Shown: in pieces, positions 5,860 to 45,739 of the stretch
Layout: each line of letters starts with the position of its first letter
Position numbering within the stretch: the first letter of the stretch is position 1
Source of the DNA: Candidatus Palauibacter australiensis
Lineage (GTDB): Bacteria; Gemmatimonadota; Gemmatimonadetes; Palauibacterales; Palauibacteraceae
Length of the DNA stretch: 64,000 nucleotides
NCBI GenBank assembly: GCA_026705295.1
Contig: JAPPBA010000155.1
Span: forward strand, 670 to 64,669
Direction: 5' to 3'
The notes under the pieces: model-generated
What the model was told of the DNA's origin: nothing
The model's input: the letters and a program-made list of their open reading frames with translations, nothing else
The model's database searches: none
Translations under genes and position numbers: made by a program

Positions 5860-8355
<2,496 letters not shown>

Positions 8356-10834: not shown

Positions 10835-10844
10835 GCGGGAGAAT

Positions 10845-31617: not shown

Positions 31618-32823
31618 ATGGAACTCGACCGGATCGCCCGTCTCGCCGGAGGCGGCGGAGGCAAGGTGCTGCTCTACGTGCTCGACGGGCTGGGCGGCCT
31701 GCCGCGCGAGCCCGGGGGACCGACCGAACTCGAGGCCGCCCGCACCCCGCACCTCGACGAACTCGCGCGCGCCGGAACGTGCGGCCTCCACGACCCCGTT
31801 GCGCCGGGCATCACCCCGGGCAGCGGCCCCGGCCACCTGGCCCTGTTCGGCTACGACCCCCTCGTGTACGAGACCGGCCGCGGCGTGCTTGAGGCCCTCG
31901 GCATCGAATTCCCGCTCCGGCCGGGCGACATCGCCGTGCGCGCCAACTTCTGCACCCTCGACCCCCACGGCCGGGTGGCCGACCGCCGCGCGGGCCGCAT
32001 CCCGTGCGAGGAAGCCGCCCCCCTGGCCGCCCGGCTCAACGGCATCGAACTGGACGGCGCCCGCTGCACCGTGCGCCACGTGAAGGAACACCGCTTCGTC
32101 CTCGTCCTGCACCCCGACGCCCCCGCGGGCGACGCCGTCAACGACACCGACCCCGGCCAGCCCGGTCTGCCGACCCGGGCCCCCGTGGCGCGGAACGCGG
32201 CATCCGAGCCGACCGCGCGGCTCCTCGCCGCGTGGCTCGACGCGGCCGCCGAGCGGCTCGCCGGCCGGACGCAGGCGAACATGGCGCTCCTGCGCGGCGT
32301 CTCCAGCCAGCCCGGCTGGCCCCGCTTCAGCGACGTGTTCGGCATGCGGGCCACCGCGGCCGCCGCGTATCCCATGTACCGCGGGGTCGCGCGCCTCGTC
32401 GGCATGGACGCGCGCACGGTGCCCGCGGGCGCCCCCCCGCTCGTTGACGCCCTGAAGGCGCGGTTCGCCGACTACGATTTCTTCTTCCTCCACTTCAAGC
32501 CTCCCGACAAGGCCGGAGAAGACGGCGACTTCGACCGCAAGGTAGCCGCCATCGAGGAAGCGGACGTCATCGTCCCCGACCTCGTCGATGCGGGCCCCGA
32601 CGTCATCCTCGTGACCGGCGACCACTCGACCCCCTCCGTCATGAGCAGCCACAGCTGGCACCCCGTGCCCTTCCTCCTCCACGGCCCCCCGGCCCGCAAC
32701 GACGCCGCCACCACCTTCGGCGAGACCGCCTGCCGCGCCGGCGTCCACGGCCGCGTCCGAGGCTGCGACCTCATGCGCCTCGCCGCCGCCAGCGCCGGCC
32801 GCCTCGCAAAGTTCGGAGCCTAG
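31618..32823 (+). CDS. apgM: cofactor-independent phosphoglycerate mutase, archaeal-type (ApgM family)
   Basis: VLLYVLDGLGGLP...TPHLDELA...GSGPGHLALFGYDP...GDHSTPSVMSSHSWHPVPFLL match the ApgM/metalloenzyme superfamily. Confidence 0.88.
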   Translation: MELDRIARLAGGGGGKVLLYVLDGLGGLPREPGGPTELEAARTPHLDELARAGTCGLHDPVAPGITPGSGPGHLALFGYDPLVYETGRGVLEALGIEFPLRPGDIAVRANFCTLDPHGRVADRRAGRIPCEEAAPLAARLNGIELDGARCTVRHVKEHRFVLVLHPDAPAGDAVNDTDPGQPGLPTRAPVARNAASEPTARLLAAWLDAAAERLAGRTQANMALLRGVSSQPGWPRFSDVFGMRATAAAAYPMYRGVARLVGMDARTVPAGAPPLVDALKARFADYDFFFLHFKPPDKAGEDGDFDRKVAAIEEADVIVPDLVDAGPDVILVTGDHSTPSVMSSHSWHPVPFLLHGPPARNDAATTFGETACRAGVHGRVRGCDLMRLAAASAGRLAKFGA

Positions 32824-32872
32824 CCGCGTGGTATGGCCCCGTACAGCCCGGGATCACCGTCACCCGCCGACG

Positions 32873-33981
32873 TTGCGTAGGCCAGGAATCGTACTCGTGG
32901 CCGTCGCGCTGTCCGCAGGCTGTGGAGAGCCGACGGATTCCGTGTCGCACACCGTCCAACTCGACCCGTATGCGTCCGTGATCGCGCCGCCGAGCATGAT
33001 CGACGAGATCGTGCTGCTGGAAGGTGACTTGGCCTGCGTCATCGATACCTACTGGTACCGTGTCGCTTGCACCGATCCGGGCGGCGAGTCCTTCAGGTCG
33101 GCAAGGAAGGCGAAGGACCGGGCGAGCTCACGGACCCGTTCGCGATCCTTCGCGGCCCGGGGGCAACGATTGGTGTTGTCGACATGGGACTTGGCCGCCT
33201 GTCGGTGTTCTCGAAAGCGGGCGAATTCCTTACTTCGACTCCCGGACTCCCGCGCGGGTTTCTGGGCGGAGGGTCACAGGAGATGGCCGGGACGCTGGTC
33301 GGCACCCACCTGAAGCGCGACCCGGATGGCGGTTTCTTTTGGGTAAACGTGGAGATCGATCCGGGCACAGGTCGTGTGGTATGGGAGCGGGCGTTCCCTG
33401 ACGAAGCCGCCGTCGTCGACTGCTCGACCCCTACGCCCGGATCTCGCCGTCGCCAGCTTTCGTTGGGATACGATGACCGAGGCGGCGGTCGTCTGTTCGT
33501 GACCTGCTACGGCGAGTTCCTGGTGTGGTACGGCGACCGGGAGGCGGACGAACCGGATGCCATCGTACGCTCCACGTATGTCGAGAGATATCCGACGGAC
33601 GAGGATGTGGAGGCGGCACTGGAGAGGCTGAATTCCATTCCCGCGGGTGGCTGGCGTCCAGACACCAGCGAGGACGGAATCCGGGAGCGGCCGAGGGTCT
33701 GGTACGGCTCCCGTGTCGTGGACGACCGTCGACGGTTCTGGGCGGTGTCGCAATGGAATTCGGAGCCCGCCGTGATACCGGCGTTCAGCCACATCGACGT
33801 GTTCCGACTCGCCGACACAGGCCCCGAGTACGCGCTGACGTTACAGGTGGCGGACAAGGTGGTGGGGATGGACGTACTCGGAAACACGCTCGCCGTGCTG
33901 GTAGAGCGCGACACCGGCGGCGTAGTCCGCGAGCGCCGCGTGGACTGGTACGACGTGACCCACTTGGCCTCTCAGCGCTGA
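32873..33981 (+). pseudogene. beta-propeller-like lipoprotein, paralog 1, interrupted by a 1-nt frame change near 33085..33093
   Basis: The frame of ORF 32828..33313 carries the lipoprotein signal (TTG 32873: MRRPGIVLVAVALSAGC) and the first strand region. The frame of ORF 33067..33981 carries the rest, including the family motif GKEGEGPGELTDP. The paralogs are continuous across the equivalent point. Confidence 0.6.
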
Positions 33982-33988
33982 CCGAGTC

Positions 33989-34052
33989 GGACGCGTTCCG
34001 GCCGGACCGCCTGGGGTCAGGCGGCGCTGGGGGGCTCGCCGGAGTGTTCACG
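33989..34052 (+). repeat. island repeat copy A (imperfect palindrome + GGGGTCAGGCGGCGCT + CGGAGTGTTCAC)
   Basis: The palindrome GCGTTCCGGCCGGACCGC (33993..34010) pairs 8 of 9. GGGGTCAGGCGG starts at 34013 and CGGAGTGTTC at 34040, the same 27-nt spacing as in copy D. It starts 8 nt after the paralog-1 stop. Confidence 0.8.
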
Positions 34053-34078
34053 CAGTTCGGACTCCCGTAGACTCCCCG

Positions 34079-35185
34079 ATGCCGTACAGCCCTAGAGCGG
34101 ACCTGACCTGCGGTGCGTTGCTGCTCCTGGCGGGCCTCCTCGCTTGTGGGAGTGAGGGCGACTTCACGGAGTTGGGAGTTGCGGACGACCGGGAGGTGGT
34201 TGACGTCTCCGCGTCGCTGGAGGCGCTCATCGGGTCCGGCGTGCGAATCGGGGCGGAAGTGAACCCTGATTCGGAGGCCGAGGCCTTTCGGCGGATTCTC
34301 GATGCGCAGCTGACGCCGGACGGCCGCTTCGTCGTGGCGCTCGATGCTAGTCCGCCATTCGTGCGTGTCTTCAACCCCGACGGATCGCTCGAAGCCGCTT
34401 TCTTGCCGCGCGGCGAGGGACCGGGCGAAGCCGAGAGTCCCGAGGCGCTGGCGGTGTCGAACGACCGCATCCTCGTGCTGGAACCCGGCCGCGCCTCGGT
34501 GCTCACATTGGACGGGGAACTCGTCGAGGACCGGCCGATCGATTTCTGGCCGACATCTGCCGCGCGTGGCTGCGCGGACGGTTTTCTGGTCTACGGTCCC
34601 GGCGCCTACGACGATGGGTCCATCGTCTGGCTCCGGTCATTCCAGGCCCTCGAAGAGACTCCGGTCTCCATCCTCGAGGGCGCGAGTCCGGCGGAGGTTT
34701 CGGCCTACCGGAGCCGCGACCGGGGCCGCCCGAGCCGTCTCGCTCGCGCGGGAGGGCTGGCCGTACTCCACCACGACGGACGAGACCCCCCGGAAACGTT
34801 CACGCTCTCCTGCCCCGGCGTCCGCACATCCACCGTGGACACCGTCCCGGAGTTCACGGAACCTGTGGTTGGCCGCGAACAGAGGGTCACGGGCGGAGCC
34901 GTGCGGACGCTACAACTCGGGAGCTACATCTTCACGGGCGCCGCGATCCTGAATCGAACACCGATCCTGTCCGCGTGGAAGATCGTCGAATCGGGAACGG
35001 AGTCCGGAACGCACTTCATCCCGGCTCGCGGCGGATCTCCCGCCTCCTACACGAGCAGCAGGGTCTCGCTGCTGGACGCCCAGCCTGGTCAAGCGGTGCT
35101 CCTCGAGGCCAGCTTTCCCGTCCCGCATATCATCATGGTGGACTACGCTGCCTTCGTACGGGCGCTGGGGGTGGAACCGCACTAG
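34079..35185 (+). CDS. beta-propeller-like lipoprotein, paralog 2
   Basis: Lipoprotein signal ALLLLAGLLACGS and family motif PRGEGPGEAESP. Repeated strand-like segments follow. It is similar in layout to 32873..33981 and 36805..38007. Confidence 0.7.
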   Translation: MPYSPRADLTCGALLLLAGLLACGSEGDFTELGVADDREVVDVSASLEALIGSGVRIGAEVNPDSEAEAFRRILDAQLTPDGRFVVALDASPPFVRVFNPDGSLEAAFLPRGEGPGEAESPEALAVSNDRILVLEPGRASVLTLDGELVEDRPIDFWPTSAARGCADGFLVYGPGAYDDGSIVWLRSFQALEETPVSILEGASPAEVSAYRSRDRGRPSRLARAGGLAVLHHDGRDPPETFTLSCPGVRTSTVDTVPEFTEPVVGREQRVTGGAVRTLQLGSYIFTGAAILNRTPILSAWKIVESGTESGTHFIPARGGSPASYTSSRVSLLDAQPGQAVLLEASFPVPHIIMVDYAAFVRALGVEPH

Positions 35186-35188
35186 GAG

Positions 35189-35224
35189 ACGTTCCCGCGG
35201 GAACGTGCGGGGTCCGGCGGTGCT
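35189..35224 (+). repeat. island repeat copy B
   Basis: ACGTTCCCGCGGGAACGT is a perfect 18-nt palindrome (35189..35206), followed by GC and GGGGTCCGGCGGTGCT. It matches copy D at 33 of 36 nt by manual alignment and starts 4 nt after the paralog-2 stop. Confidence 0.9.
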
Positions 35225-35314
35225 ACTCGCACCCCCCGCCCGCAGGCGTCAGATTTCGATCCGGAGCAGGGGAGGAAGGGGAAGTTCGGGGCAACTCGAG
35301 AGGGAGGTTGAACG

Positions 35315-36769
35315 ATGGGCGCCAGCGCGACAGGCATCGCGCGGTCGTGCGGCCGCGGCGTGACGCGGCGGCTGGCGCTCATGGCGCTCGCGCTGTGTGT
35401 TGGATGGCCGATGACGGCGGCGGGGCAGGAGCCGGGGCGGGTGGCGGGCGTGGTCCGCGCCGAGGACACCGGCCAGCCCGTGGCGGGTGCCGCGGTACGG
35501 TTGGCGGGAGGGGACGTCGTGGTGGCGGAGACCGTCACAGGAGCGAGCGGCGCCTTTGCCTTTGACGGCATCGCGCCGGGCGAGTACGTGCTCGGCGTCC
35601 GGCGCATCGGGTTCGCCGCGTACGGCGTGCCGCTGGCGGTGGGGCCGGACGGGCCGGCCTCGCTCGACGTGCGGCTGTCCCTGGACCCGGTCGAGGTGGC
35701 GCCGCTCGAGGTGGACGTCGAGGGTCGGCCGCTCCGCCTGGTCGAGACGGGCTTCTACGACCGGCTGGAGGAGGGCTGGGGCACGTACTTCGAGCCGGAG
35801 TGGATCAGAACCCGAAGCGCGGGCTTCACCCGGTTGTCGCACTTCGTGTCGAACCTGCAGATGCGGGCCCCCCTGTCCCGCTGTCCCAAGGTGCAGGTCT
35901 GGCACGACCGGAAGCGAATCGGCGAAGCGGCTGGTTGGGGGACCAGCAAGCCGGTGTCGCTCAACCCGGCCGGTAGGCACCAGTCCCCCGTGGAGCCGTC
36001 CTCGCGACTGCTGGACGAACTGTCCGTGGCGGATCTGGGCGCCGCCGAGCTGTATCCGCCTTCGTCTCCGATCCCGCTCTTCGCGCTCAACGACACCACG
36101 CTCTACTGCGGAGTCATCATCCTGTGGTCGGACTGGATGGCGCAGATGGGGGGCGAGGTTCCGCAGATTGACGTGAAGCTCTGCGAGCCGGCCGGTGGTG
36201 CCGCCGAGGTGACGCTCGACGGGACGGTGGAGGACCGGCTCACCGAGGTGCGGCTGCCGGCGGCCCGCATCCGGGCGTCGTTCGCGCCGGCCGGCGAGGA
36301 GGGGCCGCTCGAACTCTCCGAGATCGAGGTGCGGTCCGACTCGACCGGCCGCTTCCGGCTCTGCGACCTCCCGTCGGGAACCGACGTCACGCTGGCGCCC
36401 TCCTACGGTCCCCATCCGGGCGAGGTCGCCACGCTCCGCGCCGAATCTGGTGAGGTGGCGCGTCTGATTGTCCCCGTCACGATGCCGGGATCGGTCGCCG
36501 GGCGGGTCGTGAACGGGAACACGGGGCGGGGGTTCCCGGCCGTGCCCGTCATACTGGTCGGCACCGACATCCGGGTCGTGACCGATGCTGCCGGCCGCTT
36601 CGCGATGGAGGACCTGCCGCCCGGCGCGTACCAGGTGCGGGCCGACTGCGGAGGCTTCGGGTCGCCGACGCCACGGGTCGTCGTCTCGGAGGCCGGGCAG
36701 GCCCGCGTCCTCCTCGTCCTGGAGCCCAAGGACCGCTCCGGCCGCGATCTACGCCGCTGCGACAACTGA
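35315..36769 (+). CDS. secreted carboxypeptidase-regulatory-like (CarboxypepD_reg) domain protein
   Basis: Signal peptide RRLALMALALCVGWPMTAAGQ. An N-terminal GRVAGVVRAEDTGQPVAGAAVRL...GAFAFDGIAPGEYVL module and a second C-terminal GSVAGRVVNGNTGRGFPAVPVIL...GRFAMEDLPPGAYQV module are both CarboxypepD_reg-like. Confidence 0.7.
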   Translation: MGASATGIARSCGRGVTRRLALMALALCVGWPMTAAGQEPGRVAGVVRAEDTGQPVAGAAVRLAGGDVVVAETVTGASGAFAFDGIAPGEYVLGVRRIGFAAYGVPLAVGPDGPASLDVRLSLDPVEVAPLEVDVEGRPLRLVETGFYDRLEEGWGTYFEPEWIRTRSAGFTRLSHFVSNLQMRAPLSRCPKVQVWHDRKRIGEAAGWGTSKPVSLNPAGRHQSPVEPSSRLLDELSVADLGAAELYPPSSPIPLFALNDTTLYCGVIILWSDWMAQMGGEVPQIDVKLCEPAGGAAEVTLDGTVEDRLTEVRLPAARIRASFAPAGEEGPLELSEIEVRSDSTGRFRLCDLPSGTDVTLAPSYGPHPGEVATLRAESGEVARLIVPVTMPGSVAGRVVNGNTGRGFPAVPVILVGTDIRVVTDAAGRFAMEDLPPGAYQVRADCGGFGSPTPRVVVSEAGQARVLLVLEPKDRSGRDLRRCDN

Positions 36770-36804
36770 CCGCCCAGTCGGGTGGCGCCGAGCGCCTCGT
36801 CGGA

Positions 36805-38007
36805 GTGTTCACGAAGAGTGGACCTATTGGGCTCGTCTGCACGGTCACGTTCGGGGTCGCGGGCTGTGACGGCGGCGCCGAGGCCGTCGGGACGGCGAGA
36901 ACGCTTCCGGTCGTGACTGCGACTCGTGTGCGGCAATTGACGGAGGCCGAAACCGCGGGGCCGTTGTTCCGGCCGGAACATGTGAGTCGTGTCGGCGATG
37001 ATCTCTGGATTCTCGACGCGGGCAACTTACGTATCGTGATTCGCACACCCGACAGCGTGTACGCGGTTGGACGGGAGGGCGATGGCCCCGGGGAGTTTCG
37101 GCTGCCGCTGAGTCTGTCCCCGAACATCACGGGCGGCGCGACGGTGTGGGATCGTATCGCGCGACGCCTGACGCGGTTTCGACCGAACGCCGAAGTAGGG
37201 GAGACCATCGCAGTGGAGCAGCGGCCCGGCAGGATGGCGCGCGAGGTATTCGACTTGGGCCATCGGCGGCTCGTGATCTCCGGAGTCGTCCTGGATGCGA
37301 TGAACCCGCCCGCAGAGGACGATGAACCGCCGACCGCCATCGAACTCGAGCACTTCGACTCCGATGCGATCGACACCCTCGGGCACGTGCCGCCGTGGGG
37401 TCCTGTTGGCGTGTGGTCGGGCGATGGAAGGTCGATGAGCGTGTCCGCGTTCATCCGGCCGTTCGATGCGCCTCCACACGCGGATGTGAGCGCGGCCTGC
37501 GGAGGGCTGGCGGCAGTGTCGGTTGGGGGAAGGCGGCTCGAGATCGTCCTGATCGACAGGTTCGGCGACGTGGTCGGTGCGATCCGGGACTCCCTGCGTG
37601 GGCCGAGAATCACGGAGCAGGAGGTGGACGCGTTCTTCTCGACGTTCTTCCCGGACGCACGTCAGGAGGAGTTCGATCTGAGAAACCTCCTGCCCGTACC
37701 GGAGCGGCATCCAGCCGTGCACGATCTTCAGTTCATGTCGGATGGCCGCGTGTGGGCACGGTTGGATCCGGAGTCCATACTGCTGGAAGCGAATCGGCGG
37801 GAGCACAGCCGCTGGAGAGTGTGGACGCTCCGGAGGGTCGACGATGTCGTAGAGGCTTCTCCACCCTCCGACGTTCTCCTACCGCACCTGTTCACCCCGA
37901 ACGAAGTCTTGCGCGACACGATCTGGGGTGTGCGGCTCAACGAACTGGGAATCCACACCATCGAAGGCTTCGTCGTGGAGGAGTGGACCGGCTTAGGGGG
38001 CTGCTAG
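36805..38007 (+). CDS. beta-propeller-like lipoprotein, paralog 3
   Basis: The GTG start lies inside the motif CGGAGTGTTCAC, which is shared with repeat copy A. It has the lipoprotein signal GLVCTVTFGVAGC and the family motif GREGDGPGEFRLP. Confidence 0.7.
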   Translation: MFTKSGPIGLVCTVTFGVAGCDGGAEAVGTARTLPVVTATRVRQLTEAETAGPLFRPEHVSRVGDDLWILDAGNLRIVIRTPDSVYAVGREGDGPGEFRLPLSLSPNITGGATVWDRIARRLTRFRPNAEVGETIAVEQRPGRMAREVFDLGHRRLVISGVVLDAMNPPAEDDEPPTAIELEHFDSDAIDTLGHVPPWGPVGVWSGDGRSMSVSAFIRPFDAPPHADVSAACGGLAAVSVGGRRLEIVLIDRFGDVVGAIRDSLRGPRITEQEVDAFFSTFFPDARQEEFDLRNLLPVPERHPAVHDLQFMSDGRVWARLDPESILLEANRREHSRWRVWTLRRVDDVVEASPPSDVLLPHLFTPNEVLRDTIWGVRLNELGIHTIEGFVVEEWTGLGGC

Positions 38008-38015
38008 CCAGACGA

Positions 38016-38048
38016 GACGTTCACCCGGGAACGTCCGGGGGTCAGGCA
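38016..38048 (+). repeat. island repeat copy C (degenerate)
   Basis: GACGTTCACCCGGGAACGTC (38016..38035) is an imperfect palindrome, followed by GGGGTCAGGCA (38038..38048). It starts 9 nt after the paralog-3 stop. Confidence 0.75.
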
Positions 38049-38543
38049 CAGTGGGCTTAGGCGTCTGCTTCCAGTGCTTGCGCTTGTCCTCGCGAACTCG
38101 GGGTGTGGTAACGTCCTCGGCATCTTCGGCTCGCGTGCGACATTAGCGCTGCCAATACCAGAGCATCTACGAGACTCCCTCGCCGACCCGAAGGAGTTGG
38201 CCGGGCTCAGGAGGTACTACGACGACGAATGCGCGGATCTCTGCCCGCCGTGAGCGGACGCACTGCCGGCCCCCAGGAGTCGGCAGATACGTCGAATCTT
38301 GTTCCGCAGCGTACAGTGTTGCAAAATTCCGGACAATCTTCATGCCACTGAAACGTCTTGCACGTGCGGACTATGACTCGGGGGATCCGGGAGCGCCGCT
38401 CGGACCCCGGGGAAACGAGGATCACTGCGTGGTTGGAATCGGGATCGGGTTGAAACCAGCCAGCTCTTCCCGTATCGCTCAACGACCCGAGCTGCCTGCA
38501 GTTTCGGCACCCGCAGCAGGTACGGCTGACACTGTGAGAGACT

Positions 38544-38999
38544 TCACTTGGAGCGCACCACCCGGACCGTACGGTAAACGCGAACCGTGTCGCCCGGGGG
38601 CTCGTGCGGGGGCCACGAAATCCGGTCCAGTCCCGTCACCGTGATCTCGCCTGTTCCGGCACGATCGAATCGCACGTAGATCTGCCGAAGATCGTTACCT
38701 ATCCCATGGTCCGGACAACTCGAGCTGTACCGCCAGTTCATGTACGGTGTGATCGTCGCGTGAAGCCGCGTCGTTTCGGTCTCCGTTCGTCCAGGCTCCA
38801 CGTTGCAACCAAAGAACGTCCGAATCGATACCGGGAACGACTGATCCACACGGACCGTGTCCGGTACGGAGACAACCGATTCCATGTCACCGTAGATCGC
38901 ACCGACGATCTCACCGCGCTGCGGTTCGGATGAGACCACGCCACCGCAGCCGGCCATGAGACCGGCTGCGGTGAGCGTCAAGGCACATCGTTGAATCAT
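38544..38999 (-). CDS. small lipoprotein, hypothetical (coupled to the S1 protease gene)
   Basis: 151 aa with the lipobox LTAAGLMAGC. It has two Cys residues spaced 30 residues apart in a strand-rich domain (VPDTVRVDQSFPVSIRTFFGC...SSSC). Its ATG overlaps the protease TGA in an ATGA at 38996..38999. Confidence 0.7.
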   Translation of the reverse strand: MIQRCALTLTAAGLMAGCGGVVSSEPQRGEIVGAIYGDMESVVSVPDTVRVDQSFPVSIRTFFGCNVEPGRTETETTRLHATITPYMNWRYSSSCPDHGIGNDLRQIYVRFDRAGTGEITVTGLDRISWPPHEPPGDTVRVYRTVRVVRSK

Positions 39000-40501
39000 T
39001 GCTGATCGCCTCCATCATCAGCGACCACGGCCTGCCACACGCTGTAGGGGACGAAAAACGCCAGGTGTTCCTCGCCCTCCGTGTTCATCGAACCCAGATC
39101 CTCCTCGATATTCGCAATCGGCGAGTAGAAAGGTGACGCGTCGACGTCGTCCTCGCTAGAATTGCTATTGGTGAATCTGCCAACGTGGAGGCCAAAGAAT
39201 CTTCCGTCGCTGGCAAACACCGGTCCACCGCTATCGCCCCCCGTGCGGAGGTAATTCGCAAGATTCTGACACCGGACTCCGTAATCGCGCGCAGGGCTCG
39301 GCCAGTTGTAGATGTCCACACAATCATGCGTGACTCTACCGTGTGTCCGACCGGAGAACGCTCCGATCTTGATCAAGCTCTGACCAGTGACCTGCGTGGT
39401 GGGAATCTCGCCACCTTCGGATGTCATGACATACAGGCTGTCGCCATGCTTGTGGTTATGCTTCCAAGCATCGAACGGTGACCCGATCAACTCGCCACCC
39501 GACTCGACGATCTCATCCGCGTCATCCTTGGTGGTCGCAATCCATCCACGCGCGAATTTGTCGTTGGAGTCGTCCTGACCGAACAACGCGGCGTCGGCCC
39601 ACCGACAGCGAGCGGGAGGCGTACCGCCACCGTTAATCGAACATGTCTGCTGGGGATCCACGAGTTCATACCCTAGCCGGTCACTCGTGTTCGTGCCGGA
39701 TTGGTAGATCGGAAGATCGGTGTCGAGGGATGCGAAGGCGTCGTCTCCTGCGCAGTGAGACGCAGTGACATACCGCTCCGACGAACCCATCGTCACGCCC
39801 AACATGAGTGTACAACGGTCAACGCCAGTTGTATCTCCGTGACGCACCATGATACCACCGAGAGTCCTGTTGAACCGATGTCGAAGCGAGTGGTAAGACT
39901 GCGCGGATCCGCCCTCGTATCTGATGGGTGGCGCTCGATCCGGCTCAGCCCGACCAGAGACCGTGGTTGCGATCGCACCGTCTGGTATACCAACGGTTCG
40001 CGCCAGAGATTGCACAGCCGAAGCAGCGGAAACGCTTACCAAGCCGACCAGAAGCCGGTTGTTCTTCTGATCGATGTCGAGGTACGCAACGTCGCTCCGT
40101 GCACCGAAGAGTCCGGTGATGTTCTCCTTCCATCCGATGAGCTGGGAAAACGTGTAGGTCACCTCCGTGTACCGACGGGAACCGCCCGTACTGGACAGCT
40201 TGCTGTCGATTTCCGATCTCGTGACGTTTGCCACCGCTGTCTGCTTGGTCAGATTGGTCAGCGCAGTCACCGCGTCCCCGCGCTCATCAATCCAGTAGCC
40301 ACCGAACTCCGGTACGATCTGACTGATCTCAAAGAACCGCTTGTCGGTTCCCATAAGGGCATCCGCCGATACATCGGCCAACAAGATCGGTTCGTTGCTG
40401 GCTTCTGCCATAGTCGGACGTTCGAAGTCCGGCGCGGCGAGAGAATCGGAATCCGGGTAACACGCCTCCTGGCCCAACACGATCCCGATCACTAGCAGCA
40501 C
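38996..40501 (-). CDS. alpha-lytic / streptogrisin-type (S1E) serine pre-pro-protease
   Basis: The catalytic triad context is YVTASHC (His), RWADAALF (Asp) and GGDSGGPVF (Ser). Two prodomain-like repeats are present (FGGYWIDERGDAVTAL; VAYLDIDQKNNRLLVGL). It looks lower in G+C than its neighbours. The N-terminus is uncertain: the GTG at 40501 gives only a truncated-looking signal peptide. Confidence 0.85.
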   Translation of the reverse strand: MLLVIGIVLGQEACYPDSDSLAAPDFERPTMAEASNEPILLADVSADALMGTDKRFFEISQIVPEFGGYWIDERGDAVTALTNLTKQTAVANVTRSEIDSKLSSTGGSRRYTEVTYTFSQLIGWKENITGLFGARSDVAYLDIDQKNNRLLVGLVSVSAASAVQSLARTVGIPDGAIATTVSGRAEPDRAPPIRYEGGSAQSYHSLRHRFNRTLGGIMVRHGDTTGVDRCTLMLGVTMGSSERYVTASHCAGDDAFASLDTDLPIYQSGTNTSDRLGYELVDPQQTCSINGGGTPPARCRWADAALFGQDDSNDKFARGWIATTKDDADEIVESGGELIGSPFDAWKHNHKHGDSLYVMTSEGGEIPTTQVTGQSLIKIGAFSGRTHGRVTHDCVDIYNWPSPARDYGVRCQNLANYLRTGGDSGGPVFASDGRFFGLHVGRFTNSNSSEDDVDASPFYSPIANIEEDLGSMNTEGEEHLAFFVPYSVWQAVVADDGGDQQ

Positions 40502-40622
40502 ACCAAGAACGGCGTGAAACCGCCGCGGCCACTGCTTGCGCGGTACACCTGACTGCTACCTATACGCGGGCGACTGTGAACGGCCGGAAAGTTGGCGGGC
40601 GTCCGCAGAGGGCCGAGTAGGT

Positions 40623-41276
40623 CTAGCGTTCGTCCTCGGTGTGCAGGAGTCCGGCCTCGAGCGCGAAGCGCACGACCTCGCGGCGGGTGTGAAGGCCCAG
40701 CTTTGCCTTGGCGCGGGCGAGATAGCCCTCGACGGTCTTGGGGCTGAGACCCATCTCCTTGCCCGTCTCGGCAGCCGAAAAGCCGCTCGCGTAGAACTCG
40801 ACCGCGGCAAGCTCGCGCGCTGTGAGCACGTCGGGTCCCGTCTCGCGGCTCGAATGGTCCTGCGTCTTCCGTCGCGCGAGCAGGGCCGCCGCCTGTTGGG
40901 GCAGGTAGGAGTGCCCGTGCAAGATGGCTTCGATGGCGCCGATGAGATCCGTATCCGCGGCGGACTTGTTCAGAAAGCCCGCCGCGCCGGCCTTCAGGGC
41001 GGGCACGACGTAGTCATCCTCGTCGTGGATCGTGACGACCAGGACCTTCGCTCCGAGTCCAAGCCCGGTGATGCGCCGCGTCGCCTGGACTCCGTCCATG
41101 CCGGGCAGCGCCAGATCCATGATGACGATGTCCGGTTCCAGCGTCCGGGCTTTCTCCACCGCTTCCTCGCCGGAGGATGCCTCGCCCACCACCTCCACGT
41201 GCTCCGTCATCTCGAGCAACGCCTTCAGGCCGGCGCGCACCACGGGGTGGTCGTCGACCAGCAGCACCCTCACCAT
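40623..41276 (-). CDS. LuxR/NarL-family response regulator
   Basis: The receiver domain reads VRVLLVDDHPVVRAGL...IVIMDLALPGMDG. The C-terminal HTH reads LTARELAAVEFYASGFSAAETGKEMGLSPKTVEGYLARAKAKLG. Confidence 0.92.
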   Translation of the reverse strand: MVRVLLVDDHPVVRAGLKALLEMTEHVEVVGEASSGEEAVEKARTLEPDIVIMDLALPGMDGVQATRRITGLGLGAKVLVVTIHDEDDYVVPALKAGAAGFLNKSAADTDLIGAIEAILHGHSYLPQQAAALLARRKTQDHSSRETGPDVLTARELAAVEFYASGFSAAETGKEMGLSPKTVEGYLARAKAKLGLHTRREVVRFALEAGLLHTEDER

Positions 41277-42295
41277 CCGCCGCGATCCCTCTCGTCTTCC
41301 GGACCTACGGCCGGCACGGTGACCCGAATCGTGGTCCCCCGGCCCGGCGCCGTATCCACGGAGAGGCCGCCTCCGACCAGCGCCGCCCGTTCGTGCATGC
41401 TGGTGAGACCCTTGTGACTATCGAACTCGAACCCGCAACCCTCGTCGCGGATCTCCGCGATGACCGCCCCGCCCGCCGACCGGAGCGTCACCGTCGCTTC
41501 AGTGACGCCCGCGTGCCTCTCTGCGTTGGTCACGGCTTCCTGAACGATCCGGTACAGGGCGAGGGCGGCGGCCGCGTCCAGTTCCTCGTCCACTCGGTCG
41601 AGGTTCGCGTCGACCGTGAATCCATGCACCTCGCCGATGTCCCGAAAGACGGACTCGAGCGCGGACGAAAGCCGCCGGCGTTCCAGTTCCGGCGGCAGCA
41701 GCCCCCGGATCATCCGCTTCACGCCGCGGATCGTGTCATCGATCTCGCCGGCGATCTGCGCCCGCGCCTGCTCCCTGTCCCCCGCCGTCGGCTCGGACGC
41801 TAGTAGCTTCACCCTGATCTTGAGGGCCGCCAGGTACTGGAGGAACTCGTCGTGCAAGTCGCGGGACAATCGCTTCCGCTCATTCTCGATGGCGGTCACC
41901 ATCGCTCGGGACATTTGCCGCATCCGTTTCCAGCCCGTGATGTCCCGGACCGTGCAGATCACATGCTCCTGACCCGACGCCAGTCTCCCGGGGCTCAGGC
42001 TGATCTCGACCGGAATGGTCGTGCCGTCCCGGCGCAACGCCAGCAACTCGAATCCCTGCCCCATGGGACGGGCACGCGGCGTCTCGTTGTAGTGTCGGCG
42101 GTGCCGCTCATGCCGGGTACGGCTAGCTGCGGGAACCAGCCGCTCCACGGGGTAGCCATCCATCTCCTCCCGACTCCAGCCGAACATCGCGACGGCCTGC
42201 GGGTTGAGGTCGCGAACCGTCCCTTCCGAATCCACGATGAGCATCGCGTCCGGCGAGGCGTCGAAAACGGCCCTATAGTCCCTCTCGGTCAGCAC
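41270..42295 (-). CDS. cytoplasmic PAS-domain sensor histidine kinase (HisKA_3 type)
   Basis: The PAS domain reads YRAVFDASPDAMLIVDSEGTVRDLNPQAVAMFGW, the H-box ERKRLSRDLHDEFLQYL, and the ATPase part GCGFEF...GLTSMHERAALVGG. No TM segment is present. It overlaps the response regulator gene by 7 nt. Confidence 0.9.
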   Translation of the reverse strand: MLTERDYRAVFDASPDAMLIVDSEGTVRDLNPQAVAMFGWSREEMDGYPVERLVPAASRTRHERHRRHYNETPRARPMGQGFELLALRRDGTTIPVEISLSPGRLASGQEHVICTVRDITGWKRMRQMSRAMVTAIENERKRLSRDLHDEFLQYLAALKIRVKLLASEPTAGDREQARAQIAGEIDDTIRGVKRMIRGLLPPELERRRLSSALESVFRDIGEVHGFTVDANLDRVDEELDAAAALALYRIVQEAVTNAERHAGVTEATVTLRSAGGAVIAEIRDEGCGFEFDSHKGLTSMHERAALVGGGLSVDTAPGRGTTIRVTVPAVGPEDERDRGGW

Positions 42296-42362
42296 GATCG
42301 TCCGCTTCCAGTGCGGAGAGTGGGCGGATATCCCCCAAAATAAGTAAGGAGCGTATATATTT

Positions 42363-42430
42363 GAGTTGATAGTGTCATTGTCCGACGCATAAACATGACA
42401 CTTTTCAAAGTGCTGTCACGCAATCAACTC
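42363..42430. promoter_or_regulatory. AT-rich nested inverted repeats upstream of the kinase operon
   Basis: The outer inverted repeat is GAGTTGAT (42363..42370) with ATCAACTC (42423..42430). The inner one is AGTGTCAT (42371..42378) with ATGACACT (42395..42402). They sit in the most AT-rich stretch of the window (about 42340..42440). Confidence 0.5.
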
Positions 42431-42477
42431 CGGTAATGTCGACGTGCTATGGTCCTCCGCAGACTGCCGTAGGCAAG

Positions 42478-42540
42478 CCTTACGTTCCCGCGGGAACGTA
42501 AGGGGTCAGGCGGTGCTTGGCTCCTGCTCGGAGTGTTCGA
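42478..42540 (+). repeat. island repeat copy D (26-nt perfect palindrome + GGGGTCAGGCGGTGCT + CGGAGTGTTC); also the terminator and 3' end of the SPW gene
   Basis: CCTTACGTTCCCGCGGGAACGTAAGG (42478..42503) is perfectly self-complementary. The TCA at 42506..42508 within GGGGTCAGG is the minus-strand stop codon of the SPW gene. Confidence 0.9.
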
Positions 42541-42847
42541 TTCCGGCTCCGCCCATTGCGGTGCCGGTGCCCACGGTGATGACGCCGAAGATGAGGTCGT
42601 TGAACAGGGCCTGCGCGTTGGCGAGATACCCGTGGATGAAGGGCGACAGCATGCTGTACGCGCCGAGGGCGATGAGTCCCCAGCCGCTGATCCGGTTGAT
42701 GCCGAGGTTGAAGGTGATGGTGACGACGAGGATGGAACCGCCGAGCACCACGCTGTGCCACCACAGGAATCCGAACGGGTATCCCCAGATGAACGGGGCG
42801 CCCAGGAACCAGAGTCCCAGCGCGAGACCGACCCAGCGTGAGGCCAT
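42506..42847 (-). CDS. SPW-repeat membrane protein
   Basis: Trimmed to MASRWVGLALGLWFLGAPFIWGY...LGAYSMLSPFIHGY. It has 4 TM segments with SP(W/F)-type repeats and lies downstream of copA on the same strand. Confidence 0.65.
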   Translation of the reverse strand: MASRWVGLALGLWFLGAPFIWGYPFGFLWWHSVVLGGSILVVTITFNLGINRISGWGLIALGAYSMLSPFIHGYLANAQALFNDLIFGVITVGTGTAMGGAGIEHSEQEPSTA

Positions 42848-42927
42848 CGAACCTCTCTCGGAAGAAACCGGATGAACCACGAAACCGGCGCCTATGATGC
42901 GCGCCGGAAGGGGCAAAGGCAACGTCG

Positions 42928-45219
42928 CTACAGGCGGGCGCGGCGCAGGCGGTTCGCGTTCGTGACGACGGAGATCGAACTCAGCGCCATGGCGGCCTCC
43001 GCGAGCACGGGGTGGAGGAGGCCGAGGAAGGCGACGGGGATCGCGACGACGTTATAGACGTAGGCCCAGAAGAGGTTCTCGCGGATCTTGCGGAAGGTGG
43101 CGCGGGAGAGCTTCGTCGCGCGCAGCACGGAGCGCAGGTCTCCCTGCACGAGGGTGATGTCGGCGGCTTCGATCGCGATGTCGGTGCCGGTGCCCACGGC
43201 GATGCCGACGTCGGCCGCCTTGAGGGCGGGGGCGTCGTTGATGCCGTCGCCGACGAAGGCCACGGTGCGGCCGCCGGCGCGGAGTTGCCGCACGGCCTCG
43301 ACCTTGTCGGCGGGGAGCAGCCCGGCCCGGAAGTCGTCGATGCCGAGATGCTCGGCGACGGCGGCCGCCACGGCTTCATGATCGCCGGTGAGCATCACGG
43401 TCCGGAAGCCGCGGCGGCTCAGCTCGACGAGGGTTTCCCGTGCGTCGTCCTTCACCGGGTCGGCGATCGCGATCGCGCCGAGCAGCCGCCCGCCGGCGGC
43501 CACCCAGGCGATCGTGCGCGCGGCGTCGCGGAAACGCCGCTCCACCTCGGCGATGTCCTCCTCCGGGATGCCCTCCTCGCGCAGCAGCCGCGCGCTCCCC
43601 ACGGAGACGCGCCGGCCATCGACCTCGCCCACGATGCCCATCCCGACCCGGGCCTCGACGCCGTCCGCCCGGGAGAAGGGGATGCCGTGCCCGCGCGCCT
43701 CGTCGACGACGGCGCGGGCGAGGGGATGCTCCGAGGCGTCCTCCACCGCGGCGGCGAGTGCGAGTACGCGCCCCTCGGCGGCTTCATCGGTCGCGAAGAT
43801 CTCGACGACGCGAGGAGCGCCGCGGGTCAGGGTGCCGGTCTTGTCGAAGACGAGCGTGTCCGCGCGATCCAGCGTCTGCACGGCCGCCCCGTCCCGGATG
43901 AGGACGCCGCGGGTCGCTCCGAGGCCGGTCCCGACCATGAGCGCCGTGGGGGTGGCGAGCCCGAGCGCGCAGGGGCAGGCGATGACGAGCACCGCGACCG
44001 CCGCGTAGAGCGCGAGCGAGAGGCGGCCCAGTTCCGGGTTCACCCACGGGATGAACCCCGACGCCCAGCGCGCGGCCTCCGTGAAGACTCCGGGCACGAC
44101 GAACCAGCCCGCGAAGGCCGCCAGCGCGACGACGAGGATGACGGGCACGAAGATGGCGGTCACCCGGTCCGCGAACTCCTGGATCGGGACCTTGCTCGCC
44201 TGCGCCTCCTCCACGAGACGGATGACGTTGGAGAGGAAGGTGTCCTCGCCCACGCCGGTCGCCCGCACGCGGAGCGCACCCGAGTGATTGACCGTCGAAC
44301 CGAGGACGGAGGAGCCGGGTTCCTTCTCGACCGGGATCGACTCGCCCGTCGCGAGCGATTCATCGACCGCGCTCCTTCCCTCGAGGACGACGCCATCCGT
44401 AGGGATCTTCTCGCCCGGGCGGATGATCATCACGTCGCCCACGGCGACGTCGCGGGTCGGGACCTCGAGTACGGCGCCCTCCCGCTCGACGCGGGCCATC
44501 GGCGCCTCGAGCGAAAGCAGAGCCTGGATCGCCGACGAAGAGCGGCCGCGCGCCTTCGCCTCCACGTAGCGGCCCGTGAGGTGGATGGCGGCGATCATCG
44601 CGCCCACCGGCGCGAAGTTCATGATCATCGGGGCGAACCCGAGCACGTGGAGGATCGCCCACGCCCCGGTGAGCACGGAGACGCCGGCCCCGAGCGCGAT
44701 GAGGACGTCCATGTTCGGCGTGCGGCCGCGCGCCGAACGCCACGCGCTGCGCAGCGTGGGTCCCCCCGGCCCGAAGAGGACGGCGGCCCCGAGCACCGTG
44801 ACGCCGAGGTCGAAGACGAGGGGCGATGGCCAGCGGACCCCGGCGATCATCTCCGGCAGCATCCACACCATGGCCGGGACCGTGAGTGCCCACGCGGTCC
44901 ACATGGTTTTCCGCGCCTCGCGGGAGCGGGCTTCCGCCTCCGCGAGGCGCGAGCGCTCCGCCTCTCCGCGGTCCACGTCCGCGATGGGTTCGATCTCGTA
45001 GCCGGCCCCTTCGACGGCCGCGGCGAGTTCCTCGAAGCCCACGTCCCGGGTGAACGTCAGCGTCGCGGATTCGGCCGGCAGGCTCACCGACGCTTCCACG
45101 CCGTCGACCGCGTTGAGGCTCCTCTCCACGGAGCCGACGCAACCGGCACAGTGCATGCCGGCGATCCGATAAGTCCTCCGCTCAGGGGTCGGTGTGGCGG
45201 TCGATCCGTCCATCGTCAT
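42928..45219 (-). CDS. copA: copper-translocating P-type ATPase
   Basis: The N-terminal HMA domain has GMHCAGCVGSVE. The transmembrane CPC motif is CPCALGLATP, the phosphorylation site is DKTGTLT, and the hinge is GDGINDAP. Confidence 0.95.
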   Translation of the reverse strand: MTMDGSTATPTPERRTYRIAGMHCAGCVGSVERSLNAVDGVEASVSLPAESATLTFTRDVGFEELAAAVEGAGYEIEPIADVDRGEAERSRLAEAEARSREARKTMWTAWALTVPAMVWMLPEMIAGVRWPSPLVFDLGVTVLGAAVLFGPGGPTLRSAWRSARGRTPNMDVLIALGAGVSVLTGAWAILHVLGFAPMIMNFAPVGAMIAAIHLTGRYVEAKARGRSSSAIQALLSLEAPMARVEREGAVLEVPTRDVAVGDVMIIRPGEKIPTDGVVLEGRSAVDESLATGESIPVEKEPGSSVLGSTVNHSGALRVRATGVGEDTFLSNVIRLVEEAQASKVPIQEFADRVTAIFVPVILVVALAAFAGWFVVPGVFTEAARWASGFIPWVNPELGRLSLALYAAVAVLVIACPCALGLATPTALMVGTGLGATRGVLIRDGAAVQTLDRADTLVFDKTGTLTRGAPRVVEIFATDEAAEGRVLALAAAVEDASEHPLARAVVDEARGHGIPFSRADGVEARVGMGIVGEVDGRRVSVGSARLLREEGIPEEDIAEVERRFRDAARTIAWVAAGGRLLGAIAIADPVKDDARETLVELSRRGFRTVMLTGDHEAVAAAVAEHLGIDDFRAGLLPADKVEAVRQLRAGGRTVAFVGDGINDAPALKAADVGIAVGTGTDIAIEAADITLVQGDLRSVLRATKLSRATFRKIRENLFWAYVYNVVAIPVAFLGLLHPVLAEAAMALSSISVVTNANRLRRARL

Positions 45220-45230
45220 CCTTCCGGTGA

Positions 45231-45566
45231 TTACTTTCCGGCGAAGCGCATGAAGAGGTCCGCGATCTCCGCGCGCACCCGCGCGGCGTCGTCGCCGCCT
45301 TCCTCGATGGCGTGGGTGGCGCAGCGCTCGAGATGGTTCAGCAGGAGTTCCTTCTCGGCCGCGCGAAGCGCGGAGTGAACGGCGGCGAACTGTTGCAGGA
45401 TGTCCGGGCAGTACCGTTCATCCTCCACCATGCGGGCGATGCCCCCGACCTGTCCCCGGATACGGGCCAACCGACGGCCGAGGTCGTGTTTCGTCCCCTC
45501 CGCGATCCCCATCGCATGCGGCCCCGCGTCGCTCACCGCCATTCCCTCCACGCTCGCGTCCATCAT
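45231..45566 (-). CDS. csoR: CsoR/RcnR-family metal-sensing transcriptional repressor
   Basis: Trimmed to MMDASVEG... (the alternative ATG 45542 is possible). RLARIRGQVGGIARMVEDERYCPDILQQFAAVHSAL...LNHLERCATHA carries the C-H-C ligand pattern of Cu(I)-sensing CsoR. Confidence 0.85.
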   Translation of the reverse strand: MMDASVEGMAVSDAGPHAMGIAEGTKHDLGRRLARIRGQVGGIARMVEDERYCPDILQQFAAVHSALRAAEKELLLNHLERCATHAIEEGGDDAARVRAEIADLFMRFAGK

Positions 45567-45624
45567 CGACCGGCCATCCGACTTCGATCCGTCGAATCGG
45601 TCTGCGGTCGTCCTTACGTGAAAT

Positions 45625-45655
45625 ATACTATACAGGGGTATTGTATCGACGGCAA
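45625..45655 (-). promoter_or_regulatory. csoR-copA promoter with overlapping CsoR-type operator
   Basis: The minus strand reads TTGCCG (45655..45650), a 17-nt spacer, then TATAGT (45632..45627). The operator-like inverted repeat is ATACTATAC-AGGG-GTATTGTAT (45625..45646): AT-rich arms flanking a G tract, as described for CsoR sites. Confidence 0.6.
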
Positions 45656-45739
45656 CCCGCGAAACCCGGCCCGAACCGCGGCGCGACATCGGGACGCGAG
45701 CGGTGGCGGCGTTTTGCCGGGGGCTGCTAAACTAGGGCC

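Follow-up and report, generated by a model that had tools for sequence, protein, structure and literature searches.

How can a run of accessory genes, punctuated by copies of one short palindromic element, build up between two core genes when no recombinase is encoded nearby? This question is raised by a 64,000-nucleotide stretch of DNA (hereafter the window) from contig JAPPBA010000155.1 of Candidatus Palauibacter australiensis (Gemmatimonadota). Here, the gene for the cofactor-independent phosphoglycerate mutase (apgM, 31618-32823, + strand) and the gene for an SPW-repeat membrane protein (SPW gene, 42506-42922, - strand) enclose an array of small genes with four copies of the element (A to D) and a partial fifth one (E). 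The original prediction, made from the sequence alone, described a cassette array with no recombinase in view. This is correct, since Pfam annotation of the about 50 open reading frames (ORFs) of the 64-kb window did not reveal any integrase, recombinase, transposase or REP-associated tyrosine transposase (RAYT; REP, repetitive extragenic palindromic) domain. We consider it probable that an accessory array was built at the 3' end of the SPW gene and has since decayed differentially, with the repeats serving as recombination substrates and with DUF222-HNH proteins acting in trans as a plausible driver.

A strain-variable gene array between apgM and the SPW gene

In the window, the interval holds three lipoprotein genes (par1, par2, par3), a gene with carboxypeptidase-regulatory-like domains (CPDreg), a decayed stretch and a block encoding a small lipoprotein (lipo151), a protease, a response regulator (RR) and a histidine kinase (HK). 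We located the corresponding loci of eight relatives (L125-L132) via the apgM homologues in their contigs, and the percentages given below are amino acid (aa) identities of these homologues to the window protein. The apgM-SPW interval ranged from 135 nt in the outgroup to 9.7 kb in the window and its content was mosaic. The outgroup L132 (76%) carries nothing but a 135-nt spacer without the palindrome. In L128 (92%), the 1.3 kb contain a single small ORF together with a relic of the 5' part of the kinase gene, and L130 (87%) contains a par1 homologue, a 3' relic of par2 and two more genes. The 4.5 kb of L127 (93%) comprise a DUF5128 gene, a PIN toxin pair, a par2 3' relic, copy B and CPDreg. 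In L125 and L126 (both 96%), we found a helix-turn-helix gene, three DUF5128-like genes, a fusion of the N-terminal part of par2 with the C-terminal part of CPDreg, relic E and par3 (6 kb in L125), and L129 (97%) carries CPDreg, a divergent lipoprotein/protease pair, RR and HK within 5.7 kb. The locus of L131 (87%) is rearranged and contains insertion sequence (IS) elements. Thus, the interval is a strain-variable accessory gene array with an empty site in the outgroup.

The breakpoints of insertions and deletions (indels) were mapped by blastn and the junction sequences were then read. L125 lacks window positions 38048-42483 (4436 bp) and carries one hybrid copy of the element in place of C and D, which in the window form a 30-nt direct repeat bracketing precisely this segment. 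L127 lacks positions 36771-42478, and here the CPDreg stop codon and the palindrome overlap, with the SPW end immediately adjacent to the palindrome. These two indels are precise to the repeats, with copy C as left repeat of the 4436-bp indel and copy D as right repeat of both. Other differences lie off the repeats: the par2-CPDreg fusion of L125, the truncation of HK in L128 and the joining of par1 to the par2 relic in L130. In addition, a truncated relic of the SPW end was found behind CPDreg in L129.

Relics of par2 (L127, L125, L130), of HK (L128) and of CPDreg survive in the relatives. The surviving par2 and HK relics indicate that much of the mosaic reflects differential loss from an older, longer array. 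Every good copy of the palindrome in the window and in L125-L130 sits inside the variable interval, and another 200 kb or so of non-anchored Palauibacter sequence contained none. No recombinase was detected in the intervals of the eight relatives, save unrelated IS elements in L131. The neighbourhood of this locus contains IS elements (DDE_Tnp_1, rve, Transposase_mut), a reverse transcriptase and extra CPDreg genes, and SPW and copA are no longer adjacent.

Hypervariable islets and hotspots of horizontal transfer are known between conserved core genes of bacterial pan-genomes. The array resembles them in its fixed core borders (apgM on one side, SPW-copA on the other), in a content that varies among close relatives, in the empty outgroup site, in lowered G+C at third codon positions (GC3) and in the lack of an integrase, homologous recombination being presumed. 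Unlike such islets, its joints carry relics of the 3' end of the border gene and a specific 18-bp palindrome that is locally confined to the hotspot.

The punctuating element is a palindrome joined to the 3' end of the SPW gene

The repeated element proposed in the original prediction is real. Its palindromic part, ACGTTCCCGCGGGAACGT, is a perfect 18-bp palindrome that occurs exactly at B (35189-35206) and D (42482-42499) and with two mismatches at C (38017-38034), and the chance expectation for such matches in the window is 0.1. Copy A (GCGTTCCGGCCGGACCGC, 33993-34010) matches ACGTTCCCGCGGGAACGT at 13/18 positions and is degenerate in sequence, yet it is still palindromic, its changes at positions 1/18 and 8/11 being compensatory. 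B and D are identical at 33/36 positions, A and D at 42/57 across the whole unit, and in D the palindrome extends to a perfect one of 26 nt (42478-42503). The motif GGGGTCMGGC follows at 34013, 35209, 38038 and 42502, with one additional spacer base in C. Copy B comprises the palindrome and GGGGTCCGGCGGTGCT (35189-35224, + strand), an SPW-end relic with a mutated stop codon, and its orthologue is found upstream of CPDreg in L127 (at 14065). Copy C consists of the palindrome and GGGGTCAGGC (38017-38047, + strand).

The copies had been placed 3-9 nt behind stop codons. This placement was borne out, but when the 18-nt palindrome itself is measured the distances are 3-11 nt: 11 nt for A (par1), 3 nt for B (par2) and 9 nt for C (par3). 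For D the distance is 6 nt, measured to the SPW stop codon (TCA at 42506-42508, within GGGGTCAGG), this gene being on the minus strand. Single ORFs with a palindromic site 3-11 nt behind each of them, in four units of the same orientation, resemble an integron array lacking its integrase (CALIN, cluster of attC sites lacking integron integrases), in which the palindromes would be attC sites of promoterless cassettes and the integron integrase would be encoded elsewhere. The site itself does not fit. A perfect palindrome of 18-26 bp stands against imperfect attC sites of 57-141 bp with R''/L''/L'/R' boxes, and GTTCCCG does not match the R' consensus GTTRRRY. Moreover, no IntI is encoded by the about 50 ORFs of the window and the palindrome is also found within the coding sequence of DUF222-HNH genes. 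We regard this explanation as highly improbable.

The second part of the element was identified as SPW sequence, and the punctuating element is therefore a composite of two unrelated parts, the palindrome and the 3' end of the SPW gene. The module GGGGTCAGGCGG...CGGAGTGTTC corresponds to the 3'-terminal 41 nt of the SPW gene on the minus strand (about 42502-42538). It is functional, as coding sequence, in D, and A, E, B and C are relics. On the + strand, CGGAGTGTTC occurs at 34040, 36801 and 42529 only and, as had been noted for the first and the last of these sites, it lies exactly 27 nt after GGGGTC where this motif is present. The reverse frame of relic A reads EHSGEPPSAA* and the C-terminus of the SPW protein is ...EHSEQEPSTA. 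When the window was scanned with the 37-nt SPW 3' end of the relatives, relic A (34013-34049, - strand) scored 34/37, D 32/37 and relic E (36774-36810, - strand) 28/37, and the maxima of 20 shuffled controls were 22-26. The idea that A is a duplicated SPW gene end was thereby corroborated, and A is closer to the SPW ends of the relatives than to the window's own D. Copy B retains 16 nt of the SPW end and copy C 10 nt clearly, with weaker similarity beyond; the relics range from 10 to 41 nt. Relic E corresponds to the L127 junction (CPDreg stop, palindrome, SPW end) minus exactly 17 nt of the palindrome, and its CGGAGTGTTC provides the GTG start codon of par3, as proposed for this fifth partial copy. 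Since the palindrome has no orientation, the common orientation of the copies is that of the SPW-end relics alone. Conservation of these non-coding relics, at 77% between A and E and 34/37 between A and the SPW end, greatly exceeds that of the flanking genes.

Direct repeats that duplicate the SPW 3' end (relics A and E, and the C/D pair at the 4436-bp indel) bracket inserts, as do the duplicated gene 3' ends of tRNA-type islands. This raises the possibility of site-specific accretion, in which the SPW 3' end (GGGGTCAGGCGG...CGGAGTGTTC) would be an attB site, elements with an attP site would have inserted serially through a recombinase encoded elsewhere or since lost, and the relics would be displaced att sites. 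A and E stop at the identical base, directly after CGGAGTGTTC and before ACG, and their next 13 nt agree at 10/13 positions. The empty site of L132 and the deviant composition of part of the array also argue for accretion. As in islands inserted at the 3' ends of tRNA, tmRNA or protein-coding genes between attL and attR, the target end is duplicated, the functional gene is intact and the copies are nested. Unlike these islands, the array consists of single-gene units without mobility or replication functions, contains an extragenic palindrome within its repeat and lacks an integrase, no recombinase being found either in the 64 kb or, the unrelated IS elements of L131 aside, in the intervals of the relatives. 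The relics end after GGGGTCAGGC, after GGCGGTGCT, after GGTGGC (L129) and after CGGAGTGTTC, which are four positions within 30 nt, and therefore they do not fit a single fixed crossover point. The composite is known from this locus only: it occurred at no other place among at least 120 genome matches. A search of JGI metagenomes for the palindrome followed by GGGGTCMGGCGG was equally without match, which is weak evidence because close Palauibacter relatives are probably absent there. We consider site-specific accretion quite unlikely. Of the serial cassette accretion put forward in the original prediction, the relics and the empty outgroup site stand, but much of the pattern is differential loss. 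The suggested tyrosine-recombinase core site has to be abandoned, since the palindrome stands alone behind unrelated genes, is tied to DUF222-HNH genes and not to integrases, and the relic ends vary.

The reading that we favour, an array built at the SPW 3' end and worn down by recombination and decay, would proceed as follows. In the ancestor, apgM would have been directly convergent with the SPW gene. The SPW 3' end would then have received DNA in repeated additions, each of which put a fresh copy of palindrome and SPW end on the gene and left the old one (about 57 nt) on the far side. As direct repeats these copies would represent portable homology, and recombination between them would delete whole blocks and could re-insert them (Campbell-type). 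Ordinary deletions would wear away the remaining array, and with both processes at work each lineage would retain a different subset. No dedicated recombinase would be needed, and none is present locally. Here, we infer that the repeats drive the rearrangements. Two contigs of other, independent assemblies (L003 and L004) begin exactly at 34002, the dyad centre of copy A, and both terminate near 37606-37611 inside par3, which suggests strain-level branch points or an assembler artefact.

The palindrome beyond this locus and its link to DUF222-HNH genes

Among GTDB representative genomes, the exact 18-mer was found in at least 120 stretches, about 15 being expected. About 45 sites belong to Palauibacter or other Gemmatimonadota, with at least nine exact copies in one metagenome-assembled genome (MAG) among the matches listed. 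Most Palauibacter copies lie 1-50 nt past stop codons; a location between convergent genes is frequent, as are local clusters and doublets. The genes ahead of solo palindromes are unrelated (carB, NFACT, M24 and S9 peptidases, sortilin-like, DUF5128-like and CPDreg genes), and among the at least 120 matches listed the GGGGTC motif did not follow the palindrome at any place outside our locus. No exact match was obtained in IMG/VR viral contigs, and a phage origin is therefore unlikely. We did not find a published description of the palindrome in a literature search that was incomplete. For mapping further copies we propose the pattern GTTYCCGCGGRAAC with up to two mismatches.

This distribution bears on an explanation in which the repeats have no causal role. 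The palindromes would then be GC-rich 3' hairpins (terminators or stabilisers, REP-like), and the array would have arisen by tandem duplication, divergence and random deletion. The positions behind stop codons and between convergent genes agree with such passive punctuation, as do the stable hairpins at the palindromes with stems of 7-11 bp, the membership of par1-3 and of the 341- and 398-aa genes of the relatives in one remote family, and the many indel ends away from repeats; the identical A/E junctions are explicable by a single tandem-duplication junction. Several observations argue against it. Hairpins A-D are not followed by a U-tract or T-run, and a consensus terminator scan gave no match at these sites. 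The 14-nt core of the palindrome is almost invariant in sequence, beyond what structure demands, and the sequence types are concordant within loci. Furthermore, the palindrome occurs inside and upstream of DUF222-HNH genes (L119, L133), which are not terminator positions; the non-coding relics outlast the genes they flank in conservation; and two indels are exactly repeat-bounded. We consider this explanation doubtful. The related proposal of a lineage-specific REP or terminator family was right in that the palindrome is dispersed, but the palindrome is not lineage-specific, has no U-tract and also resides inside coding sequence, which implies that it is not a plain terminator. Neither is it a recombinase core site.

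With REP sequences, their mosaic arrangements (bacterial interspersed mosaic elements, BIMEs) and their RAYT partners, our palindromes share the short, GC-rich, extragenic character, the position behind unrelated genes, a nuclease-type partner gene and doublets about 45-65 nt apart (L039, L079, L107). They differ in that the partner is DUF222-HNH and not a Y1 (HUH) transposase, in that the sequence is common to several phyla and in frame within the partner gene, and perhaps in copy number, which may be tens and not hundreds per genome (at least nine in one MAG among the matches listed). Doublets spaced 52-65 nt were seen at L066, L077, L091, L107, L039, L079 and L008, and several doublets hold a conserved second hairpin, GCCAGTnnnnnnACTGGC, between the copies. 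At L079, TTGACA precedes each copy. Judged by sequence, the doublets appear to be BIME-like mini-units or mini-units resembling miniature inverted-repeat transposable elements.

The partner gene emerged from the neighbourhoods. Among 132 palindrome-neighbouring ORFs of all phyla, DUF222 (8) and HNH (4) were the commonest Pfam families and Y1_Tnp was not found. Sixteen palindrome loci form one homologous cluster. Within these genes the palindrome is in frame and encodes (D/N/H/Y)VPAGT(S) ahead of RRLACDA; the coding sequence of a sister motif, VSAET, is GTTTCCGCGGAAAC, likewise a palindrome. The motif is present in 113/120 of the DUF222-HNH homologues listed. In-frame copies number 1-3 in these genes and are located near aa 190-230, near aa 257-300 (VPAGT/VSAET) and at the 3' end, as seen in L119, L133, L135, L136, L096, L097, L109 and about 70 further loci (L008-L250). 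Palauibacter genomes have several DUF222-HNH genes each. Three of the loci (L119, L133, L135) have one copy in the gene and another 130-165 nt upstream of its start, with a conserved leader behind the latter. No gene has its 3' end at the upstream copy of L119 or L133. Copies B and D of our window are identical to the palindromes in and upstream of these Palauibacter genes. The actinobacterial loci L096, L097 and L109 have palindromes flanking the DUF222-HNH gene.

The palindrome exists in two variants that are hardly ever found together at one locus. At L136, which carries a VSAET-type gene, both the internal copy and the one 130-165 nt upstream are of the GTTTCC...GGAAAC variant, and this variant 18-mer was found at 120 or more loci in a metagenome scan. 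When canonical-anchored loci contained additional copies, these were canonical in 37, variant in 2 and mixed in 4 cases; for variant-anchored loci the corresponding figures were 34 variant and 2 mixed, with none canonical. Among the matches listed, 24/120 canonical-anchored and 48/120 variant-anchored loci carried a DUF222-HNH gene. Taken together, these data link the palindrome across phyla to DUF222-HNH (REP13E12-type) genes, a widespread family of selfish nuclease genes.

By sequence, the solved relatives of DUF222-HNH proteins cover the HNH domain only (IscB, McrA, group II intron maturases). An AlphaFold2 model of the N-terminal DUF222 domain (protein P0135) had a predicted local distance difference test (pLDDT) score of 92.1. 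The top 18 Foldseek hits of this model were all ParB, Spo0J or Noc structures, DNA complexes included (TM 0.46-0.58, probability 0.94-1.0, E-values weak at 0.08-1.6), and the modelled domain looks like a ParB/Noc-type DNA-binding fold. In ParB-type systems, palindromes of 16 bp (parS) and 14 bp (NBS, the Noc-binding site) are read by a helix-turn-helix, and in Bacillus subtilis a parS site is located within spo0J. Our palindrome has the outer half-sites of parS (GTTyC...GrAAC) with a different centre. Its predicted system resembles ParB-parS and Noc-NBS in these half-sites, perhaps in the fold modelled for DUF222 and in the location of a site within the gene of the putative binder. It is unlike them in its centre (CGCG vs. 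ACGT), in lacking the N-terminal CTPase domain of ParB, in its HNH nuclease partner and in that binding is predicted. We did not find a published statement of a ParB-like DUF222 fold or of a parS/NBS-like palindrome in the literature searched.

REP13E12/DUF222 loci are among the most recombined in Mycobacterium tuberculosis and 'lack defined biological function' (PMC13061034). The Mycobacterium REP13E12 elements ('13E12 repeat') share with our system the protein family (PF02720 + PF01844), the multi-copy state and, in M. tuberculosis, the character of hotspots of recombination and gene conversion (PMC13061034). They differ from the window, which has solo palindromes without a DUF222-HNH gene; the palindrome that accompanies such genes is present there, a criterion of likeness that was set here and is not a published one. 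It is plausible that the solo palindromes are bound or cut by DUF222-HNH proteins encoded elsewhere and may thereby become recombination hotspots. A more far-reaching version takes the palindrome for the cognate parS-like site of DUF222-HNH proteins, which would unite a DNA-binding domain of ParB fold with an HNH nuclease; acting in trans, their nicks or breaks at solo copies would assemble, delete and reshuffle one-gene units of ORF and palindrome in an integrase-free cassette system. We judge this version unlikely; if nuclease-driven cassettes of this kind were real, the REP13E12/DUF222 family would gain a function and a DNA target.

Several points weigh against the reading that the array was built at the SPW 3' end and reshuffled through its repeats. 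Of the many differences among the relatives only two end on repeats, and how new blocks first acquired palindrome and SPW end is not accounted for. The composite is confined to this locus and is hence no mobile unit in its own right. The contig ends at the palindrome of copy A may be assembler artefacts. As to the proposed driver, Pfam on the window and tblastn did not detect a DUF222-HNH gene or relic in the window or in the intervals of the relatives, no sequence-level ParB signal was found in DUF222 (Pfam to E 10; a profile search of the PDB returned HNH only), and the Foldseek E-values for the ParB likeness are weak. The array is best filed as an accessory-gene hotspot with att-like relics. 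As such it is ordinary but unusually legible, since its nested SPW 3'-end relics record its history, and the repeats account for part of the strain differences. The more valuable by-product is an 18-bp palindrome in two concordant variants tied to DUF222-HNH genes across phyla, and its connection with a ParB-like fold is an unexpected and testable lead. A candidate DNA target makes REP13E12 function testable with both variants of the site and with the VPAGT and VSAET forms of the protein, and the findings suggest a way in which hypervariable regions of other bacteria could originate from short solo sites.

Two further candidate roles were considered and rejected. The local LuxR-type RR is not a likely binder of the palindrome, which is genus-wide and cross-phylum, RR and HK being present in some strains only. 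A chromosomal parS site was dismissed on sequence, as the central four bases differ from those of the parS consensus. Among the remaining observations, an exact palindrome lies in a ThiS-like gene (L083 at 3394, L123 at 1897), where it encodes DVPAGTS (MQIQVNGKERDVPAGTS...), which reflects either coincidence at the coding level or an insertion in frame. In L096, a Mycobacteriales MAG, the two palindromes that flank a DUF222-HNH gene (6225-6265, 7755-7800) lie within a larger palindrome of about 40 bp, the arms of which (TGTGGACA...TGTCCACA) resemble DnaA boxes.

Array genes, composition and flanks

The DNA of the window, which has a G+C content of about 70%, is 100% identical to metagenome contigs of four assemblies, and its apgM protein (Pfam PhosphMutase/Metalloenzyme) is 92-97% identical to Ca. 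Palauibacter (Gemmatimonadota) MAG proteins. The apgM gene is the left border of the interval and is syntenic in the relatives. Shortly after apgM, all close relatives share an 11-mer, CCGTACAGCCC (32839-32849 in the window, + strand). The window has a second copy at 34082-34092 (+ strand), overlapping the par2 start, and par1 and copy A lie between the two. This duplication may represent microhomology or a target duplication from a separate insertion event. We rejected the interpretation of the 11-mer as right-end relic of a DUF222-HNH unit, the element ends being without BLAST similarity beyond the palindrome.

The first array gene, par1 (32828-33981, + strand), is a frameshifted DUF5128-like lipoprotein gene with frames 32828-33313 and 33067-33981 and an LSAGC lipobox; its C-terminal part is 77% identical to the L130 gene and its GC3 is 0.74-0.76. 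It is followed by par2 (34079-35185, + strand; GEGPGE motif, GC3 0.80), CPDreg (35315-36769, + strand; PF13620, GC3 0.90; 88-89% identical in L127 and L129) and par3 (36805-38007, + strand; GC3 0.78; 95% identical in L125). Within par3, a 16-nt palindrome, TGTTCCGGCCGGAACA (36965-36980; also in L125 at 16145), shows the central GGCC variant as in copy A. The three lipoproteins had been called paralogous. They do belong to the same remote family, and homologues in the relatives weakly match DUF5128 (6-bladed beta-propeller family), but just the GxGPGE motif is common to them by BLASTP. By sequence they appear to be distant DUF5128-like family members and not recent paralogs.

Copy C is followed by a decayed non-coding stretch (38048-38543) without a coding-like ORF, with a G+C of 0.61 and patchy similarity to L129. 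The minus-strand block comprises the 151-aa lipoprotein lipo151 (38544-38999), a 501-aa trypsin-like protease (38996-40501), the LuxR-type RR (40623-41276) and the PAS-HisKA_3 HK (41270-42295), the last two identified by Pfam and both present in L129. The lipo151/protease pair is only 26-30% identical (aa) to the pair of L129 (12857-14828), next to an RR/HK identity of 90%, and looks like a swapped, perhaps diversifying, module. Copy D is separated from the start of the kinase gene by a 186-nt spacer (42296-42481) that is AT-rich (G+C 0.495) and probably serves as promoter region for the HK-RR-protease operon. In L009, L072 and L113, comparable AT-rich stretches lie next to palindromes.

The proposed lower G+C of the array holds in part. 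Compared with the core genes (GC3 0.88-0.95), GC3 is lowered in par1-3 (0.74-0.80) and in lipo151/protease (0.68-0.70), but CPDreg (0.90) and RR/HK (0.84-0.87) are near normal.

The Rfam gathering scan of the whole window did not return any family, and no tRNA or tmRNA was found in the window as integration target. By Pfam, the left flank of the interval is housekeeping (leuS, uvrA, gyrA, ccmABC, apgM). On the right, the SPW gene (PF03779) adjoins the P-type Cu ATPase gene copA (42928-45219, - strand) in the relatives except L131; copA and the csoR-like repressor gene (45231-45689, - strand) form the conserved right border, and the flank also includes SSF, TrkA and serA. An exact search for the SPW protein in assemblies did not return a record. 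Further to the left, an ORF for a D12-class adenine methyltransferase (9737-11185, - strand) overlaps a Kdo-transferase ORF (10845-12236, + strand) by about 340 nt, and one of the two starts is probably over-extended. The segment at 11-12 kb has an unusually high G+C of 0.79.

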